DNA of 63,942 bases, counting the filler, from Malassezia furfur (Eukaryota), in the NCBI GenBank assembly GCA_052055015.1. It is 3 parts of 3 records of this genome, joined end to end, with 100 filler letters (N's around TTAATTAATTAA, not from the genome) between each part and the next. Parts side by side here need not be neighbours in the genome. Positions count along the whole stretch, not along the records: positions 23,833 to 47,551 come from JBQJIT010000149.1; 2 more parts are not named here. The stretch is one strand, 5' to 3'. The notes beneath the pieces were generated by a model. That model searched no databases, was not told where the DNA came from, and saw nothing but the letters and a program-made list of their open reading frames with translations. The translations under genes and the position numbers were made by a program. Of the stretch, positions 3,628 through 62,223 are shown piece after piece (within the stretch, counting starts at the first letter, position 1; each line of letters opens with the position of its first letter).

Positions 3628-4063
3628 ATGACCTTCTTTGAAGTGTTTGCTGGACTCTCGGGTGCGACGGCCGTCGTGGCGGGGTAGGTACGGATGCATT
3701 GACGCAGTGCTTTTGGTGCGCATGCGCTCAAGGACAAGCTGAACCCGCACCGTGCGTATGGACGAGCGTAGACGAACTAACGTGTCAGAGGCCGCGTCGT
3801 GGTCGACCGCGACGCACTACCAGCTGGTGCACTCGGTTGCGCTGCTGTTCATCTCGTCGCGTGTGCCGTTGACTGGCGCCGCATACTTTGCTAGTGCCGC
3901 GTTCGCGACGGGCATCACGCTGTTCAGTGGCTCGATCTACGGACTGTGCCTGCTGAATGCCGGCAGCCCGCTGCGCAAGGTGCTGGGCCCGACGACGCCC
4001 CTCGGTGGCCTCTCGTTCATTGCGGGCTGGATTGCGCTTGCGATTGCGGCGCGCCGCTTCTGA
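3628..4063 (+). CDS. DUF423/TMEM256-family small membrane protein (2 introns)
   Basis: Spliced product MTFFEVFAGLSGATAVVAG|AFGAHALKDKL...W.TA.HYQLVHS...G.TLFSGSIY...LGP.TPLGG carries the family motifs GAFGAH, YQ..HS, LFSGS and TP.GG. Confidence 0.85.
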
Positions 4064-9669: not shown

Positions 9670-10269
9670 ATGGGTGTCGCGTTCAGCCGGCTATGGACCT
9701 CGTTGTTTGGGCAGCAGGAGCTCAAGATCTGTATTCTGGGGTAGGTCGTGCCGCTCACCGCAGACTGGATAATGCGGGCAAGACGACATTGATGTACAAA
9801 ATGACGCTCGGGTCGGTCGTCGCGACGGCGCCGACCATCGGGTCGAACACCGAGACGTTTGAATACAAAAACCTCAAGTTCCTTCTGTGGGATGTCGGCG
9901 GGCAGACGTCGCTGCGTTCCAGCTGGGCACAATACCTCACGGCGACCGACGCGGTACGTTGCACGCGCACTTACCCAGCTCATCTACGTCGTCGACAGCA
10001 ACGACCGGGACCGCGTTGCGCTCGCGCGCACCGAGCTGCACCGCATCGCCGCCGAAGAGAACGTGGCGCGTGCGCCGATCCTCGTGTGGGCGAACAAGCA
10101 GGACGTCAAGGGCGCGATGAACGCGTCCGAGATCTCCGACGCGCTCAACCTCGCCGCCTTCCGCGACCGCACGTGGCAAATCTTTGGGTGCTCCGCGCTG
10201 ACGGGCAAGGGCCTCACGCCCGGCCTCGACTGGCTCGCCACGACACTCGCGAAAAAGAACACCACATAG
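9670..10269 (+). CDS. ARL5: ARF-like small GTPase, Arl5-type (2 introns)
   Basis: MG myristoylation start, [43 protein letters not shown] and SLRSSW are typical of Arl5. Introns of 23 and 25 nt. Confidence 0.8.
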
Positions 10270-10275
10270 CCTGTA

Positions 10276-11519
10276 CTACAATCCCTGCGAGCGCAGATCG
10301 CGCTCGTGCCGCGACGTGTCCTCGTTCGCGAGGTGTCTGGGTCAGTCGCGCGCGTACGTACGTCCACTTGCTCCGGCTGCGCTTGCCAAAGTCGCGCACC
10401 TGCATGATTTTGGGCAGCGCCGCCTTGTTCACCGTGCTCTCGGTCTGCTGCGTGTAGTCCCGCTGGAGAATGTCCATGTCCTGGTAGAACGCGCCCTTGT
10501 GGTGGTACTTTTGCAGGAAGCCCTGGCTGCCCCGCTGCTTCTCCTGCCGCGTCTGCCGCGCATACGCGAGGTCCTCCTTGAGGCGCTGTGCCTCGGGCAG
10601 CGCACGGCGCCGCTCGATCTCCTCGCGCTCCTCGCGCTGCTGCCGCTCCTGCATCTGGAGCCGCTGGATGCGCGCTAGCTCACGAAGGCGCCAGGCGGCA
10701 AACTCGGCATCAGGGTCGACGTCGTCCGTGTCATCGACCTCGTGCGTGGTCTCTTCGTGCTTCTTCTCCCGCAAATCACGCTGCACACGCTCGGCCGCAA
10801 GGTCATGCGCAGTCTTGCGCTGCGCGTCGCGCTCCGTGTCTTGCGAGTGCGTCGTGGTATGGAGAGAACGCTCGGCGGCCGCGGCGCGTTCGCGTCTGCG
10901 TTAGTGCATCGACGTACTTGGATACAAATACAGGTTTGAGCATCACGGGCTCCGGCTCCGACTCGCTCTCGCTTTCGCTCTCACTCTCCGTCTCACTCTC
11001 CGTCTCGCCCTCGGACGACGACGGCGCGACGGGTGGGGCACCGAGAGTCACGGCGGCAGGCGCGCGGGCTGGCGGCGCACGCGGTGGCTGCGCGGTGATG
11101 GGCCGCATGCGTGGTGCGGTGGGCGAAGGTGCGCGCTTAGGCGCGGCGGCCGGCGCGGCAGGCTTCGAAGCCGGTGGTGCTGGCGTTGGCTCTGCCTGCT
11201 CCTCCTCGTCGGTATCCGTTTCTGTGTAAGGTGACCACGTACCATACTCGCTCAAATCTACACCAGTATCGTCTGCTGGTTGCCCGGCCTGGGACGCGTC
11301 CTGCGCGTCGCGTGTCGGAAACTGGATGGCTTCGTCACCGCGCTGGATTGTAACACCGGCCGAGCGCGCCTGGGGCACGGCCGTATGGCTTGGTAGCGGC
11401 TGCAGCTCCTCCTGTACGGGTACGGGCGCCGGTGCATCGTCGTCCGACGACTCGTCCACGAGCGGCACGGGCGCTTTGCCCGGGCGGTAGCGCGCAGGCC
11501 GTGCTGGGCGTCCGCTCAT
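10276..11519 (-). CDS. MFAP1: MFAP1/Spp381-like spliceosomal B-complex protein (3 introns)
   Basis: RYRPGKAP at the N-terminus, [70 protein letters not shown]. Confidence 0.9.
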
Positions 11520-32236: not shown

Positions 32237-32854
32237 CTAGATAGTCCGTCGAACTTCGAATTGCCTGCGTCAGCCAATACACATACCGCTTGACAAAGTA
32301 CACCTGGAAGGCACACACGGCCACGATCAGGACGGTCTGGACGATGGACCACCACTTTACACGCGAGTTGGTGCTTTCGGCCGTGTTGCGGTGCACACGT
32401 TCGCGCATCACGAGGTACTCTTGCTCGTCCTTGAACAGCTGCACATTGGTTGCAAGGTCACGCAGCTCGCGCTCTGCCGGGATCAGTCCCTCTTCCTCGG
32501 TGAGGTACAGGATGCCGTGCACGTTGAAACTGCATGAGCATTGGTGACATACCTGAGCGTCTTGTCCGAGATGGCCGAGAACTCGTTGCTGAAGCAGTAC
32601 GTATACCGCCCATCCGCGTCCGCAATAAAGTCGTACGTGCCCGTGTCCTTGCGCAGCTGCTGGAACAGCAACTGGCCGTCGGGGTCGCGGATGCGAACGT
32701 CAATGTCGAGGTGTCCACCGCCCGACACCTGGTACGTGAGCGTCATCTCGTCTCCAACATGCATGTCCTCAAAGAAGCAGTGCTCTGTGTGAGGCAGCAA
32801 GTCGATTGTGTGTGCCAGCACGCACGGCAGCAGCAGCAGCCATGCGATCCACAT
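32237..32854 (-). CDS. EMP24: p24/GOLD cargo receptor, Emp24 (beta) type (2 introns)
   Basis: Signal peptide, CFFED, YQV..GG.LDID, G.YTYCFSNEFS...K, QEY...RER.HRNTAESTNSRVKWWS, transmembrane segment, KR|QFEVRRTI*. Confidence 0.92.
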
Positions 32855-32972: not shown

Positions 32973-33655
32973 ATGGCGGACCAAGAGACGAAGCCGACGA
33001 CGCTGACTGGTGTACGTTGCGCTTCACTGACGCATAGGGCACCGCCGAGGGCGAGCACGACCCCCAATTTGAGCCGGTGATTAAGCTTGAGCAGCAGGTC
33101 GAGGTGAAGACGAACGAGGAGGACGAGGATGTCCAGTTCAAGATGTACGTGTCCCCGACTCATCCAGCCGCGCGAAGCTGTTCCGCTTCGACAAGGAGTC
33201 TAAGGAGTGGAAGGAGCGTGGCACGGGTGATGTGCGCCTCCTGAAGCACAAGCAGACGGGCAAGGTCCGTCTCGTGATGCGCCGCGACAAGACGCTCAAG
33301 GTGTGCGCGAACCACTACCTGGCGCCCGACATCAAGCTCCAGCCGAACGTCGGCTCGGACCGGTCGTGGGTGTACAATGTGACTGCCGATGTGTCGGATG
33401 GCGAGCCCGTGGCGGAGACGCTCGCGATCCGCTTCGCCAACTCGGAAAGTAGGTGGAACCTGACTAACCCCAGACGCCGATCTGTTTAAGAAGGAGTTTG
33501 AGGCCGCGCAAAAATCCAACGAGACCGCCGGCAAGGGCGAGGCCAAGGGCGAGGCCAAGCCGACCGAGTCGAAGGAGGAGGCCAAGCCGGACACCAAGGA
33601 GGAGGTCAAGCCGGCGTCCGACGCTGAGCCTAAGGCCACCGAAACGAAGGAGTAG
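32973..33655 (+). CDS. YRB1: Ran-binding protein 1 (3 introns)
   Basis: [30 protein letters not shown]...[45 protein letters not shown]. Confidence 0.95.
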
Positions 33656-33720: not shown

Positions 33721-35382
33721 CTATGTACTCTCGCTCGAGTCGCTCGCCTCGTCCAGCTCGTCCCACTGGACGCGCGCACGATCCGCTGCCGCGGGGGCCG
33801 CCGGTAACTGGCCCAGCAATGTGTGGAATTGCCGCGAAATGGCGGCGCGGATCGCTTCCCAGGCATGCGCCGAATACCAGCCCGTGGTGATCTGTGTGAG
33901 CGTGCGCACGTACGTCAGGCTCGGCACGGAGGTTACTGTCTCCCTCGGCACGAATTAGTGGGACGATGGTGATGTCCGTAATGTCACACAGCTGGAAGGT
34001 GCTGGTGGACAGCGCCGCATGTTTCCCGTCAAAGATATGCGTCGCTGGCCGTGCGTCCGAGGCCGGCGCACTTTCGCGCTCGCGCTGACCTTGCAGCACA
34101 TCACCGTACTCGGCTTTAAAAATGCCGCGCGCCGTTGCATTCCGCGGCGCTTTGCCGCGCAGATGGATCCGCTGGAAGCTGGGTAAGCAGCGCACATACA
34201 ATCGACTCTCGGGTTCCTTCCGGGGATCGTAGCCAAAGCGCACGAGCGTGTCTCGCCAGGGACCGTCCGCGAACGTGTAGGCAGCGACCGCAAAAAGCTC
34301 CTTGGCTCTGGGGTAAGTCCTCCACGTACTGGACCAACACGCGTGCGTCGCACGCGCGGAACTGGTTTAGCAAGCTGAGGCGCGACCATACGGGGCGAGC
34401 GGCAAAGTGCTACAGTCAGAAACCAGCGACACACCTCTTTCAGCTGCGCCAGCAGCGCCTAGTGTCGGTCCGAGAAGGTGGCACGCGCAAGTGCCTCATC
34501 GGGTCCAGTCGGCACCACGTCCGACTGCGCAAACTTGACCGCGACCGGGGCCATATTCCGCCAGCGCGAGCGGTTCAGATAGCGCGTCACGACGCGTGTA
34601 TCTGGTTCCGTGGGATCCACGTCGGCCTGTCCTTTGCGTACTGTCTTTCGCGCACGCTTAGCGGTGCTTGCCGAGGACACGGTCTGTAGACTCGACGCTG
34701 GGTTCTGCCGGTACGCGTAGTTGAATGGCAACTCCATCCGGCTAAAAAAGGGAGGGGGGATCATGGCCAGGTTGCTCCGCAGTACGTCTCGCTCTTTCTG
34801 GTCCGGCACCTCGTATTCTTCCGTCTCAGGCGCAAAGCGGAACTGTTGCAGCGCGCCGACATCCATTTGGACCAGTGCGCTATGCAGTGCCTCGGTCGGA
34901 TGTGTCGCCGCTCCTGCAGGAAGGTCCGGCTTGAATGCAAAGTCGGCCATGCGTACAAAGCGCACTGTAGATCGCACCGCGCCAAGCAGCGTAAGGGTAT
35001 AGGCTTTGCGCGTCTCCGTGTGCCCCTCGGCATTTCTCCGTTGCCATACGCGTTTCCGAAGCCGCACAACGAGCTCCTGTCCTGGAACCACATCACCAAG
35101 AATAGGGTGCCGATACAAGCTCCCGGTCTCGTCCTCACCAGAAAGGGGAGCGAGGCGGCACTCTATCAATTTCCCCCCGCGGGCCAAGACGTGCGCCAGG
35201 TGGGCCAGTGCGCTGGGTGCGCTTTGCAGCCCACTCCCTGGGCCAGCATAGGGCGAGAGTGTAGCAAGCGCACGCTCCAACGATTCTCGCGTCTGAGTTA
35301 CTACGCCGGGGTATTCGATGGTGACGAGCTGCACCGATGGAATGCGCCAGGCCGGCGCCGCTGACCCCGCGCTATCGACCAT
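33721..35382 (-). CDS. TFC1: TFIIIC subunit tau95/Tfc1 (several short introns)
   Basis: IEYPG.V......AL.TL, HPI.G, G.V....RF..MADF, PPP.FS....P.NY.Y.QN; downstream exons RPVW.R, GPWRD..R.GYDPR, FQLCDITD, TGWY. Confidence 0.85.
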
Positions 35383-35437: not shown

Positions 35438-37107
35438 ATGGCCGACCTCACGTCGTTGCTGGGCGCGCAGCGCGGCACGGACGATGCGTCCAGCCATGAA
35501 ATTCACGCAGACAATGACCAGTGGGCGGAATCTCTTCGCGTGGCCGAGTCGTATAATGCCGAGAAGCCGTCCACATGGGACGCAGAGCCCAACCCGCTCG
35601 CGGCACCACGCGTGTCGCTCGCGGTGAGCACAGACTTGAAACAGTGGAACTACCGCTACATGTTTGAAAAGAAAGGCGAGCGCAGCCTTGGTACGTGATA
35701 AGCTCATGCAGAACTGGACAACCGCCTGGACGACATGGGCGAGGTCATCCGGCAGTCGTTTGCACTGCCGACCGAGCTAGAAGATCCATCCATTCCGTCG
35801 CAGGACAGCATCTACTCAGTGGGTCGAATCTGCGCACGAATCGACCCACAGTCCAAGCAGGCGGGCGCGTCAGACCGCCTGACTCAGGCGGACTTGATGC
35901 TTGAGACGAGTCGCATGGTCGGAAATGGCCAGCGCGTGCCGCTGGCGCTGGATCCGTCGTGCCAGGTACGCTACGCGTGGGCCGATAGTGCCGCCCAAAG
36001 CGCCAGTGTTGTGGGTCTCTTCCCAGGGATGATTGTCGGCGTGAAGGGCCGGAATGGCAGCGGGAACCGGTTCGTGGCCGAGGAACTCTTGATGGTGCGT
36101 CCCAATGCCTAATGCAGCCGCCGGCCTTGCCGCATCCAGCAACGAGCCGCTCGGAAATGGCGCACCATCAGTACGACGAGGCGCGTCTGGGAGGTCAGCC
36201 GCTCCGTGTTGTGGCAGCCTCTGGCCCGTATACGGATGACAGCGATCTACTCTTCAAGCCGTGGCACGCGTTTATGACGCACATCGAGAGTGCCCAACCG
36301 GATGTTCTAGTGCTGGTACGTGGTATACTTACCTAGATGGGTCCGTTTGTGCCTGCGTCGCACCCCAAGATTGTGGCAGGCGACATTGACGAGGTGCCTA
36401 CCGCCATCTTCAAGCGGCACATCTCGCAGCGTGTTTCGCGCCTGATGGAACGTGCACCCGGCACAATGGTCATCCTTGTGCCAAGCACCGAGGACATGTT
36501 CCATGCGCATCTTGCGTACCCCCAGCCGTTCCTCGACAAGAGCAATCCTGCGCTCGGCCTGCCGAAGCGCGTGCGCTGCTTGCCGAACCCCAGCGTGTTT
36601 TATATCAACGAGCTGGCGATCGGCGTTAGTACGGCCGACGTGCTCGGTGATTTGCGGCGTGAGGAGCTCGTGCAGCGAGTACAACCCGGCGCAGACAGCA
36701 AGGGGAGCGCGTCGTCGAGTGATGCGCGTGACCCGATGATGCGCCTTGCCCGGCATGTGCTGGCGCAGCGCAGCTTTTACCCCATCTTCCCCCCGTCGTC
36801 GGCATCCATGCTGCCGCTCGATCTATCGCATTCGCGGCTCTGCACGCTGGACCAGGTGACGCCCGATTTACTGCTTCTGCCCTCGCCGAAGACGAAGCCG
36901 TTTTTGCGCGTGGTCGACTCGACGATGGTGGTCAATCCCGGGGCGTTGGCCCCCACGCAGCCGGCGCAGGCGCCCGGTGCATTTATGCGGATGCAGGTCG
37001 ACGCCCTGCCGCGTGAAGCCCTTTTCCGTGGCGACGACGCCGACCAGGAGCTCGTCACGCACGAGCTGTACGCGCGCGCGCGCTTAGACCTCGTGCACAC
37101 CTTGTAG
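35438..37107 (+). CDS. POL12: DNA polymerase alpha subunit B (3 introns: 35691-35711, 36095-36117, 36316-36336)
   Basis: YRYMFEK, SQ..I..VGRIC, LETSR..G.GQRV.L, LFPG.IV..KGRN..G..F, ASGPYT..DL...P, PDVLVL|MGPF, LPNP..F.IN, QRSFYP.FP, PD.L.LPS, NPG. Confidence 0.92.
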
Positions 37108-56525: not shown

Positions 56526-57083
56526 ATGTGGTACGTGGGCGCGGCTGACGCAGCAAGCACATCTTGAACGCACAGGTCGCAGTCCGGGCGCCATGCTGCC
56601 GCAAGTTCTTTGATGTACGTCGCAAGGCTCACACAGTGTCCCCAGTGCCACGATGAGCAAGAGTCACACCCTCTGGCCAAGACGACGGAACTCGCGTTCC
56701 TGTGCAAGAAGTGCCGACGCGCCTTCCGCAAAGACATGGCGGTGTATGAGCCAGAGGACGAGTATTGCCCGCACTGTGACAACCACTATGTGATCGAAGC
56801 AAAAACACCTCAGCTCATGCTCCAAGTGGAAGGGGAGGATGGTCGCGTCGACCCTAGGTACGTGCGCGCCGACTTATGCAGTATGATCCGCGACGAGCGC
56901 GTCAAAGAGCGCGTACCCAGCACGCAGGATGGTGCCAAAATCGACCATGGAGGATACCAGGCGGCGGCGGTCGCCTTCCAACAAAAGCTTGCCTCGGGCC
57001 AAGCGACCAGCAACTCGTCACAAGCACCGCAAACACCACAGATCCCGTTGGACCAGCTAGACGCCGAACTAGATTGGGATTGA
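56526..57083 (+). CDS. CHY zinc-finger protein (3 introns; 5-nt first coding exon)
   Basis: Spliced MC|KHILNAQVAVRAPCCRKFFD|CPQCHDE...H.L...CKKCRRAFRKD...DEYCPHCDNHYVIEA. Confidence 0.88.
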
Positions 57084-58613: not shown

Positions 58614-60556
58614 ATGGACCGTGCGGAGCCTCGCAGCGAGGAAGCGGACATGGTCGACGCGGGCGTCGTCCCGTCCGAACCTCCGGCGACGCTCGAGGCG
58701 TATATACAACAAGTCCAACAGCGGCGCAAGCTGTTTGAGCCAACGCCAGCCGCGCGCGAGACGCGCAAGGGGTATACGATCGACCCCATCGGCGCCGCGC
58801 CGCATTCCACGCATATCAACGCCATGGCGCTCTTCGAGGATGCGAGCGTCCTGCTATCAGGGGGGAGCGACGGCTACGTGCGCTGGTATGACCTCTATGC
58901 GAGCGTCAACGGCAAGAATATGCTCACGCAAAACCTGCGCAGTTCCTTCGTGGAGGGCGTTGCCAAGGGCGGCGTGCTAACGTCGTGGTGGGGCAACGTG
59001 CACCTGGATGCTGGTGACCCCCTTTCGCGCCAAGATGCACCCCTGAGCCCCGTTCACAGCCTGGTGTGTGAGCGCAATGGGCTATGGGGGATCAGCGGAG
59101 GAGAGAGTGGGCAGATTAATCTGTACGGCCTGCGGCACGATCCGGGGCAGTTGCGGCATGTGTTCCGCAAGCACACTGCGGCAGTGTCCGCGCTGGCACT
59201 TTCCGACAGCCAGACAGAGCTGCTGAGCGGCGGCTGGGACCGCGGCGTCTTTGTACGTGCCCACGACTCACACAGCAATGGGACTTGCACACGGGGCAGA
59301 TGGTTCGTGCTTACGATGGGCACGCAGGTCAGATATCGAGCATCCAGTTCCGTCCGCTGCACGCGCCGAGTGCGCCCGTGCCCGACATCCACATCCGCGC
59401 CGACGCCGCAGAGACCGCCGAGGGCACATCGCCGCTTGAGGTGGAGCTTGAAGCGGAGCTGGCACAGACGATGGATACGGATGGGCCGACGAGCGATGTG
59501 CCGCCCACTGACGAACACGATGCGATCCTTGACTCGGATGCGGAGAACGAGGAGCGCGGCGACAAGGACAACGACAACGACTCCCTCTTTGGCGAGCAGG
59601 ATGAGTCGATGGCCGATGCGCGCGTCGACGGCTCTGGCGAGTCGGCTGATGCGTCGGGCGACTCAGACCTCGATGCGGACGGCGAGGCGGACCTGTTTGA
59701 TGGCGAAGATACCAAGCCCGAGGGCGACGACAGCGACGATACGCCGCAGGTACAGGCCTCAGCGCCCGCCAAGACCCCGGCGGGCCTGTCGCTCGCGCTG
59801 CCTGGGCAGCAGCGCCCCGACGTCAAGAAGGAGGCGCCGGGCGCAAGTCCACCGCCTGCCGCGCCCAAACCCGCGGCACCAATGGCGCCCGTCGTGCCCA
59901 AAACTAATGTCAAGCAGCTGCCCAAGCCCATGTTTGGCTCGATGAGCATGCCGTGGCAGTACGATGCGGACGTGTCGCGATTCAGTTCCGACATTATGCT
60001 GACGAGCACGCTCTCTGGCCAGGTGCTTCTTTGGGACCGCCGCGTGGACAACAAAGCGCGCCCTGGCGTGCGGGCACTGCCGCTGCCGCCCAACACGCCG
60101 CCGTGGTGCATGAGCGTCTGCTGGAACCACGCCGGGGACCGCATCTATGTCGGCCGGCGCAATGAGACGGTGGACGAATGGGACGTGCGTATGCTGCCGG
60201 ACGTCGCCCACCCTGAGCGCGGGCCGGCATCGCCCGCATCGGCGAATCACCAGGCGCCGCATATGCTCCAATCGCTGCGCCTTCCGCGCGGGAGTGGGCC
60301 GGTGAGTGCGGTGTCGATCATGCCCAACGACCGGCACATTGTCTGTGCGTCGTTCGACAACGTGCGCCTCTGGGACACGTACGCTGACCCGCGCACCGAG
60401 GTGCCCTTCAAGATTGTCGCGGGGCACCATGGCGGTACCATCTCGCAGATGCTGGTCGACGAGCGCGCGCAGTTCCTGTTGACCAGCTCCGGGGACCGGG
60501 GGTGGTTCTCGACGAGCACCGAGACGCTGCTGCTGCACGAAATTTTGGTGCTGTAG
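58614..60556 (+). CDS. SPT8: SAGA complex WD40 subunit Spt8 (1 intron near 59253-59275)
   Basis: Y.I.P..AAPH.T.INA, SGGSDGY.R.YD, SPVHSL, SG.E.G.INL..LRH..G, PPWCMS.CW, IY.GRRN.TV.EWD, LP..SG.VS.V, CAS.DNVRLW, PF.IVAGHHGG.IS, SGDRGW. Confidence 0.93.
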
Positions 60557-61604: not shown

Positions 61605-62223
61605 ATGACACGCCTCACGTTTGTGACTGGCAACGCGAACAAGCTGCGCGAGGTGAAGCAGATCCTCGAGGCTGCACCCAACTCGAGCTGGACGCTCGAG
61701 TCCAAGGAACTGGATGGTAGGTGATATGCTAACGCCGCAGTTCCCGAGGTCCAGGGCACGACGCAGGAAGTCGCGCTGGCCAAGTGCCGCTCGGCCGCGC
61801 AGCAGCTGCAGGCGCCGTGCCTCACGGAGGACACGGCGCTGTGCTTCTCGGCGCTGAATGGTCTTCCGGGTCCGTACATCAAAGACTTTTTGAAGAACCT
61901 CCGGCATGACGGTAGGTCGTGCGACTCACGCAGGCCTCAACCAGCTGATCGCTGGCTTTGACGACAAGCGCGCGACGGCGCTGTGCACGTTTGCCTTCTC
62001 ACCTGGCCCGAACGAGGAGCCCATCCTGTTCGAGGGAACCACCGAGGGCCGCATTGTGCCTCCGCGCGGCCCGACGCGCTTTGGGTGGGACCCCATCTTT
62101 GAGGTCGCTGACATGGGCAAGACGTTTGCCGAGATGGACGGCGCGGAAAAGAACAAGGTATCGCACCGCGCGCGTGCGCTTGCCAAGCTGCAGGCCTACT
62201 TGGAAAAGACTAGCCCACAATAG
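61605..62223 (+). CDS. HAM1: Inosine triphosphate pyrophosphatase (2 introns)
   Basis: [35 protein letters not shown]...G.IV.PRG...FGWDP.F, T.AEM....KN..SHR.RAL. Confidence 0.96.

Follow-up and report, generated by a model that had tools for sequence, protein, structure and literature searches.

A 21-nt lower bound of Malassezia furfur introns is the sum of two minimal distances and occurs together with a decayed RNA face of U2AF65

Introduction

POL12 of Malassezia furfur carries introns so short that the question arises of how a spliceosome can engage both of their ends. Introns below 30 nt are known from ciliates, nucleomorphs, and obligate parasites, and human splicing complexes take up about 50 nt between the 5' splice site and the branch point. 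The locus is part of a stretch of 63,942 nt, filler included (assembly GCA_052055015.1), which we refer to as the window; it has 65% G+C and consists of three contigs with N runs between them. An original prediction had proposed two obligatory 21-nt introns in POL12, introns of 22-25 nt in other genes of the window, and a modified mechanism of intron definition that such lengths would imply.

The assembly comprises 13.68 Mb in 1856 contigs and contains second copies of genes that are about 86-88% identical, i.e., about 13% apart. Haploid Malassezia genomes measure 7.3-9.3 Mb, and hybrids are known for M. furfur (PMC10410736); the genome likely originated as a hybrid of the M. furfur complex. 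The best match of POL12 is from M. yamatoensis (70%), that of U2AF65 from M. obtusa (89%).

Results

POL12 is interrupted by three introns of 21-23 nt

POL12 encodes the B subunit of DNA polymerase alpha and extends over positions 35438..37107 (plus strand), with four exons and 534 aa according to homologue alignment and Pfam; the start codon was chosen by the homologue consensus, which starts MADL. Intron 1 (35691..35711, plus strand; 21 nt, phase 1) contains an in-frame TGA and has its branch A at 35706, which is position +16 of the intron and 5 nt from its end. Intron 3 (36316..36336, plus strand; 21 nt, phase 0) ends with an in-frame TAG and has its branch A at 36331, again at +16. Both introns had been predicted with exactly these coordinates and sequences, and a third one, intron 2 (36095..36117, plus strand), which has 23 nt, a branch A at +18, and restores the frame, had been overlooked.

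The introns have to be removed, as predicted for the two of 21 nt. Without splicing, the frame from 35438 reaches a stop after 86 aa; removal of 35691-35711 extends it to 217 aa, additional removal of 36095-36117 to 284 aa, and removal of all three to 534 aa. The spliced junctions 1, 2, and 3 align without gaps in 10, 12, and 12 of the 13 homologues compared, which range from Malassezia to Kwoniella, and positions 1-37 and 38-208 of Pfam family PF04042 meet exactly across 36316-36336. Exceptions are found in three annotated proteins of Malassezia, which are 7-9 residues longer at junction 1, and in one that lacks exon 3. In the records concerned (P0004, P0009, P0012, and P0003), a stop-free intron 1 with a length divisible by three is read through in three cases and exon 3 is missing in one, which are probable annotation errors caused by the tiny introns.

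The second POL12 copy of the genome (L003) has kept all three introns with the same lengths, and changes are found mostly between donor and branch. As three of eight metagenome loci (L161, L162, and L164) lack all three introns, the spliced junctions are visible in DNA itself. Intron 1 is missing from the genomic DNA of L161, L162, and L164-L168, and intron 3 is absent in L161-L165, with L163 being a cut locus that covers only junction 3 and is intron-free there. L165 has intron 2 only, with 36 nt; introns 2 and 3 have 23 and 24 nt in L167/L168, and 41 and 66 nt in L166. In trees, from which L164 and L168 were left out, L161-L163, L165, and L167 group among Malassezia, and so does L166 (clade support 0.98). 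The clade of P0008 shows a precise loss of all three POL12 introns. Small samples of further introns give a similar picture of lengths by lineage: seven of nine calls at L165 have 31-36 nt and one has 21 nt, L166 has introns of 41-66 nt and one of 136 nt, and L167 has introns of 22-34 nt and one of 64 nt.

Tiny introns are frequent in the window

We predicted 54 introns in the window, 36 of which have 21-26 nt, and 25 of these 36 are not multiples of three. Gene models and Pfam families (MFAP1, zf-CHY, EMP24, Ham1, Arf, DUF423, RanBP1, and SPT8) bear out the introns of 22-25 nt that had been proposed outside POL12, at the level of the Arf family in the case of the Arf gene. Unless stated otherwise, the following introns are supported by both the model and Pfam.

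On the minus strand, MFAP1, a splicing-factor gene (10276-11519), carries introns of 22 nt (10896..10917, frame-restoring) and 25 nt (10337..10361), and one of 21 nt (11222..11242, 16 nt to the branch A plus 5 nt) that is based on the gene model. Also on the minus strand, EMP24 has introns of 22 nt (32265..32286) and 23 nt (32530..32552), and a gene with a TFIIIC Tau95 domain has a stop-free intron of 21 nt (34179..34199, 16+5) that is kept in the second copy, as well as two model-based introns of 22 nt (33892..33913, and 34308..34329 with 16+6). All others are on the plus strand. The DUF423 gene contains an intron of 24 nt (3684..3707), and the Arf-family gene introns of 23 nt (9741..9763) and 25 nt (9954..9978), the latter at the point where Arf Pfam positions 22-84 and 85-173 meet. 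In YRB1 (RanBP1), an intron of 23 nt (33145..33167) is accompanied by introns of 26 nt (33012-33037) and 25 nt (33449-33473). The CHY zinc-finger gene has an intron of 22 nt (56615..56636), with adjoining introns of 23 nt (56531-56553) and 24 nt (56858-56881), and SPT8 has one of 23 nt (59253..59275). In HAM1, an intron of 22 nt (61912..61933) together with one of 24 nt (61717-61740) yields a frame of 190 aa; one HAM1 intron call was set by hand from 33 to 22 nt.

A DNA search of the genome with the third contig (47652-63942) returned neither the contig itself nor a second copy, and its introns thus derive from the unpaired model together with Pfam. Gene pairs that nearly abut are common in the window, and the HAM1 stop (62223, plus strand) overlaps the predicted end of a convergent gene (62210, minus strand). 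Tiny introns also occur in splicing-factor genes elsewhere in the genome: U1-70K contains four of 23-28 nt, and the METTL16-like gene one of 21 nt with an in-frame stop.

The length floor is the sum of two minimal distances

To obtain intron lengths at the genome scale, we applied a gene finder that reads both copies, gives all lengths from 12 to 500 nt the same prior, and trains its own splice matrices to nine aligned blocks with 281,060 columns in total. Of the 217 introns called, which belong to 164 genes, 201 keep their splice sites in both copies; the other 16, with splice sites lost or low-scoring in the second copy, were left out. The paired introns have a median length of 25 nt and a mean of 41.6 nt; 115 have at most 25 nt, 147 have at most 30 nt, and a tail extends to hundreds of bases. 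No paired intron has 16-20 nt, and lengths of 21, 22, 23, 24, and 25 nt occur 10, 30, 28, 24, and 22 times. The single call below 21 nt in the paired set is a 15-nt stop-free stretch within a 5.3-kb frame and is probably coding sequence. With their median below 30 nt and a hard lower bound of 21 nt, these introns match the tiny-intron systems of ciliates, myxozoans, and dicyemids in this respect.

The bound has an internal structure. All ten 21-nt introns have the branch A at +16 followed by 5 nt, and the 22-nt introns are composed of 17+5 nt in 25 cases and 16+6 nt in 5 cases. Among the 181 introns of up to 45 nt, the branch A is at +16 or later in 179, and the distance from the branch A to the intron end is 5 nt in 101, 6 nt in 40, and less than 5 nt in none, with a finder that permitted 4 nt. 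The floor of 21 nt is therefore the sum of two minima seen in the DNA: the branch A does not precede +16, and the intron continues for at least 5 nt beyond it. One frame-fixed case of a skipped AG lies 3 nt after the branch (C6:64673); another candidate on C6 that was taken for a skipped AG is coding sequence.

The same limits appeared when we counted motifs only, i.e., donor, branch, and YAG over 831,485 bases, in comparison to five shuffles; as both copies are included, these counts are not independent. Lengths of 21, 22, and 23 nt were found 53, 85, and 82 times, in contrast to 4.0, 4.0, and 5.8 in the shuffles, and matches rose from 7 to 56 when the branch position moved from 15 to 16, and from 1 to 261 when the branch-to-end distance moved from 4 to 5 nt. 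Sixty-one motif matches of 14-20 nt were considered as even shorter introns and rejected, as 46 arose from a second donor inside a longer candidate, and the remaining 15 were within the shuffle expectation (about 23). When the branch term was removed from the finder, the peak at 21-26 nt stayed. The 37 extra calls below 21 nt in this run included 33 multiples of three that look like coding sequence; three of the other four were unconvincing, and one was the start of a 219-nt intron, so that real introns among the 37 are unlikely rather than impossible. An unpaired finder run gave 468 strong calls with a median of 24 nt and none below 21 nt.

Comparison of the copies was also informative. Of the 181 short introns, 46 have copies of unequal length; the difference is a non-multiple of three in 44, and in no case does the length drop below 21 nt. 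Among 86 copies of 21-22 nt, one had a shorter partner, versus 30 among 184 copies of 23-27 nt (P = 7e-5), which reflects the same floor and is not an independent test of it. Spacers diverge between copies at 0.37 (293/792), as compared to 0.05, 0.03, and 0.27 at the three codon positions, and the +5 G, the U at branch position -2 (0.01), and the branch A (0.0) are nearly invariant.

Splice signals are strong and fused at the 3' end

All information of the introns resides in two elements, the donor GTRYGY and RCTNAY-N(1-4)-YAG, in which branch and acceptor are fused. Signal strength is not reduced in any length class, with 9.0-9.8 bits for the donor and 6.8-7.4 bits for the branch. The ends are GT/GC-AG with a few GC donors, and +5 is a G in 180 of 180 introns. 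An AAG acceptor was noted in 12 of 181 short introns. Only 187 of 356 post-branch bases are pyrimidines, i.e., there is no pyrimidine tract, as had been predicted, and the fused 3' element indeed leaves no space for one. The predicted spacer of 4-8 nt needs correction at its lower end, as at least 6 nt separate the donor hexamer from CTNAY. Positions +7 to +12 and those upstream of branch position -4 are without sequence bias in the paired introns, so extended U6 or U2 helices are not indicated, and the linker between the 5' and branch helices is a neutral stretch of 5-6 nt in the tiny introns. The exon side of the donor is biased (-1 G 0.52, -3 A 0.43).

Donor position +4 is C in 0.64, T in 0.24, and A in 0.04, with free C/T divergence between copies, and A appears to be avoided there. 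A loss of METTL16 was considered as the cause of the C/U at +4 and dismissed, as the genome has two copies of a METTL16-like gene, in which a 21-nt intron occurs. We also looked for selection against stop-free introns with lengths divisible by three. The length classes modulo three are 53:70:57 (P = 0.27), and stops occur in 15 of 53 introns divisible by three and in 37 of 127 others (P = 1.0), so that this idea was abandoned. The undepleted stop-free introns divisible by three (38/53) suggest that splicing is efficient or that retention is tolerated.

U2, U6, and U1 proteins look normal

In line with a check that had been suggested, we surveyed parts of the splicing machinery, and most of the components surveyed gave no sign of divergence. 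U2 snRNA was found with 124 bits in one match, a single match despite the doubled genome (L001:1501-1693, minus strand), and has the canonical branch-pairing GUAGUA; its Sm-site region, AUCUUUUUCG, deviates from the Rfam consensus. U6 snRNA was found with 78 bits in two matches with an intact ACAGAGA. U1-70K and U1C are encoded by two genes each, and genes for U2AF65 and METTL16-like proteins are present. The core machinery is thus without visible remodeling as far as U2, U6, U1-70K, and U1C are concerned. Reduced spliceosomes with U1 snRNP loss are of the Cyanidioschyzon type; judged by its U1-70K and U1C genes, M. furfur is not of this type. Judged by GT/GC-AG ends, the donor described above, a CTNAY that pairs with the GUAGUA of U2, and canonical U2 and U6, the introns belong to the major (U2) type.

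Searches by model, pattern, and scan, with 41 of 173 candidates scored, did not recover a U1 RNA. As a covariance search also missed the U1 of Cryptococcus (Parker et al., PMC10581693), this absence says little. A U1 with a compensatory change for GTACGT donors was sought as well; the pattern matches were donor reverse complements or coding DNA, and no U1 was found in sets of 16, 7, and 20 candidate loci. A U1 5' end sequence is found on the sense strand in POL12 intron 3 (36324-36333), probably by chance, as it is missing from the second copy. A genome-wide search for RED_N (PF07808), which was run without a positive control, gave zero candidates; human RED/Smu1 are required where the distance from the 5' site to the branch is short (PMC6692369).

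The RNA face of U2AF65 is decayed in the Malassezia clade

The divergent component is U2AF65. RNP aromatics of U2AF65 stack on RNA, and in the alignment to human U2AF65 chains, both aromatics of RRM1 RNP1 are gone in the M. furfur protein. We compared the query and 120 homologues from the matches listed (best 120 of 645). The aromatic triad of RRM1 is intact in none of 20 proteins of the Malassezia clade versus 99 of 99 outside (two lacked the region), and the RRM2 aromatics are intact in 4 of 20 versus 101 of 101. This clade of 20 includes six named Malassezia species and has a support of 1.0, and the second U2AF65 copy of the genome has lost RRM aromatics, too. RS/SR dipeptides are few (0-7 in the six named Malassezia proteins). 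Judged by its RRM1 and RRM2 aromatics, the protein would not act as a canonical reader of pyrimidine tracts. Schwartz et al. in 2008 reportedly linked changes of U2AF65 with the strength of the pyrimidine tract across eukaryotes.

The loss mainly affects the side that would face RNA. Columns conserved outside the clade are retained to 0.96 in the UHM and to 0.95 for the ULM Trp, as compared to 0.63 in RRM1 and 0.66 in RRM2, and the hydrophobic core positions of the RRMs are mostly kept. UHM and ULM are the established binding modules for SF1 and U2AF35 (PMC8624252). Overall rates of evolution are higher in this clade (tree depth 0.73 versus 0.42), which as such would not account for the contrast between RRMs and UHM, and U1-70K and an RBM39-like RRM have kept their RNP aromatics. 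The clade-wide decay can be regarded as direct evidence at the sequence level for altered recognition of the 3' end. As L166 belongs to the clade and has introns of 41-66 nt, the decay follows the fused 3' end and not the tiny length.

Discussion

That the tiny introns are genuine spliceosomal introns is practically certain in our view. The modified mechanism that had been postulated for them is supported in part: U2AF65 has lost its RNA face throughout the clade, and the 16 nt from the 5' site to the branch are about one-third of the human value of about 52 nt, but the core machinery is not visibly remodeled, as the survey of snRNAs and U1 proteins revealed. We favor the interpretation, with a probability of roughly 0.6, that these are U2-type introns of ordinary chemistry that have shrunk to a steric minimum and whose ends are engaged in turn.

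At the 3' end, a U2AF65 without its RNA-facing residues and with its partner modules kept would form a protein bridge from SF1 to U2AF35, so that branch point and AG are read as one unit. This role is probable given the pattern of conservation, and the minimum of 5 nt between branch and end may correspond to the reach that the second step needs. At the 5' end, U1 would be released before or while U2 pairs, and the 5' site would dock on U6 only once the helices, which would be short and joined by a linker of 5-6 nt, approach each other at activation. The minimum of 16 nt may then represent two short helices plus the linker at activation or branching. The human B complex covers about 52 nt, with a U6 helix of 17 nt, a span of about 21 nt, and a U2 helix of 14 nt (Keiper et al., PMC6692369). 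As 16 bases are too few to bridge the 5' and branch helices in the arrangement of human-type early complexes, we lean toward such a staggered engagement, by a modest margin over its negation. A more far-reaching version is a variant of the major spliceosome: U2AF65 would serve as a fixed ruler from SF1 to U2AF35 without binding RNA, the wide geometry of the B complex would be bypassed, lariat loops of 16 nt would be routine on thousands of introns, and RED/Smu1 may be lost. We consider it tentative and somewhat doubtful.

The strongest competing explanation keeps the order of assembly unchanged. A flexible, compact fungal spliceosome would stay in contact with both intron ends in the usual E, A, and B complexes, its helices being shortened. 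The floor would then be due to helix collision, and the decay of U2AF65 would reflect relaxed selection after loss of the tract, as in Mud2. The presence of U2, U6, U1-70K, U1C, U2AF65, and METTL16-like genes is in agreement with it, as are ciliates and myxozoans, which splice introns of 15-27 nt with snRNAs and U2AF that are reportedly conserved (PMC9505925, PMC13644364), and Mud2, a dispensable protein reduced to the UHM (PMC8624252). However, the helices of the human B complex are 15 nm (about 21 nt) apart (PMC6692369), whereas only 5-6 linker bases are available here. As dropping the extended helices still leaves this span, staggered engagement is favored over a flexible standard pathway, which we regard as unlikely, though a serious contender.

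Exon definition, in which U2 and U1 are paired over the exon and U6 takes over the upstream 5' site directly, would remove the steric clash, and the biased exon side of the donor is compatible with it. It is nevertheless improbable, as flanking exons range from a few bases to more than 1000, many single-intron genes have no downstream 5' site, the floor is set by distances inside the intron, and U2AF65 is poor in RS/SR dipeptides. Very improbable is an artefact, be it assembly errors, pseudogene lesions, coding insertions, or the use of longer introns. Such a view could invoke the three public Malassezia POL12 proteins in which intron 1 is read as coding, and the many introns divisible by three that lack a stop. 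Against it, signals are kept in both copies while spacers outpace third codon positions and lengths change out of frame, the exact junction is intron-free in other lineages, longer introns would remove conserved POL12 residues, and RNA-seq backs 99% of the curated introns of M. sympodialis (PMC5389616). U12-type donors have the consensus RTATCCTT. Removal by the minor spliceosome or by an endonuclease, some of whose introns are similar in length, can practically be dismissed given GT/GC-AG ends, a branch motif complementary to canonical U2, and the invariant +5 G (180/180), which does not fit a U12-type donor.

Short introns in Malassezia as such are not new, and the caveat raised with the original prediction, that a known length distribution would lessen the novelty, applies in part. 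A review describes them as very short (PMC7426719), curated M. sympodialis introns have a mean of 30 nt with RNA-seq support for 5271 of 5350 (Zhu et al. 2017, PMC5389616), as opposed to 65-79 nt in earlier automated sets, and a re-annotation of M. restricta has a minimum intron of 20 and 15 (PMC6473144). The M. sympodialis annotation gives the mean and a cumulative plot (Fig. S8) that may show the floor, and the accessible part of the paper contains no analysis of branch geometry or splicing factors (PMC5389616). We found no tiny-intron analysis in the accessible parts of fitild, Lim 2021, Wu 2015, Gioti 2013, and Coelho 2023. The additive 16+5 floor and the decay of U2AF65 are apparently new, as neither these nor a 21-nt floor in Malassezia was described in the literature searched, in which subscription journals were thinly covered.

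Other systems share some of these features. Stentor splices introns of 15-16 nt with conserved snRNAs (PMC9505925), and myxobolid myxozoans and Dicyema have introns of 22-27 nt (PMC13644364, which also cites Paramecium and microsporidia and does not mention Malassezia in its accessible text). Like these, Malassezia combines a median below 30 nt with a missing pyrimidine tract and a conserved branch-pairing sequence of U2. Those lineages have reduced signals (a donor 'GTa' and weak branch As), and U2AF is conserved in myxozoans (PMC13644364), whereas Malassezia has strong signals, a long length tail, and decayed U2AF65 RRMs, and is culturable with genetic tools. In Yarrowia lipolytica, about 1 base separates the branch motif from the YAG (Mekouar et al. 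2010, PMC2911113), a distance shared by 101 of the 181 short introns here, but Yarrowia introns are long and more than 90% contain stops, whereas the 5' part is minimal, too, in Malassezia, and stop-free introns divisible by three are not depleted, unlike in reports for Paramecium and Yarrowia. Saccharomyces Mud2, a degenerate U2AF65, similarly has a kept UHM, a degenerate RNA-recognition part, and a weak pyrimidine tract (PMC8624252); Malassezia U2AF65 differs in retaining both RRM folds and the ULM Trp and losing mainly RNA-facing residues, and budding yeast has no U2AF35 and long introns. As in humans, the distance from the 5' site to the branch is limiting and not the total length, but the human limit, determined in vitro, is about 50 nt, with splicing abolished at 46 nt (Keiper et al. 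2019, PMC6692369), as compared to 16 nt here.

Default annotation misses tiny introns. Among the 10 closest POL12 records that we examined, four had an intron read as coding or an exon dropped, so many such errors are likely in Malassezia proteomes. Malassezia is culturable, and genetic tools exist. The 16+5 rule and a decayed U2AF65 in such a tractable host permit direct tests of tiny-intron splicing. If the variant-spliceosome interpretation is true, Malassezia would be the first system amenable to culture and manipulation that allows a base-by-base dissection of the minimum-intron problem, and lineages of the same genus near modal lengths of 22, 32, and 45 nt could be used for comparison.
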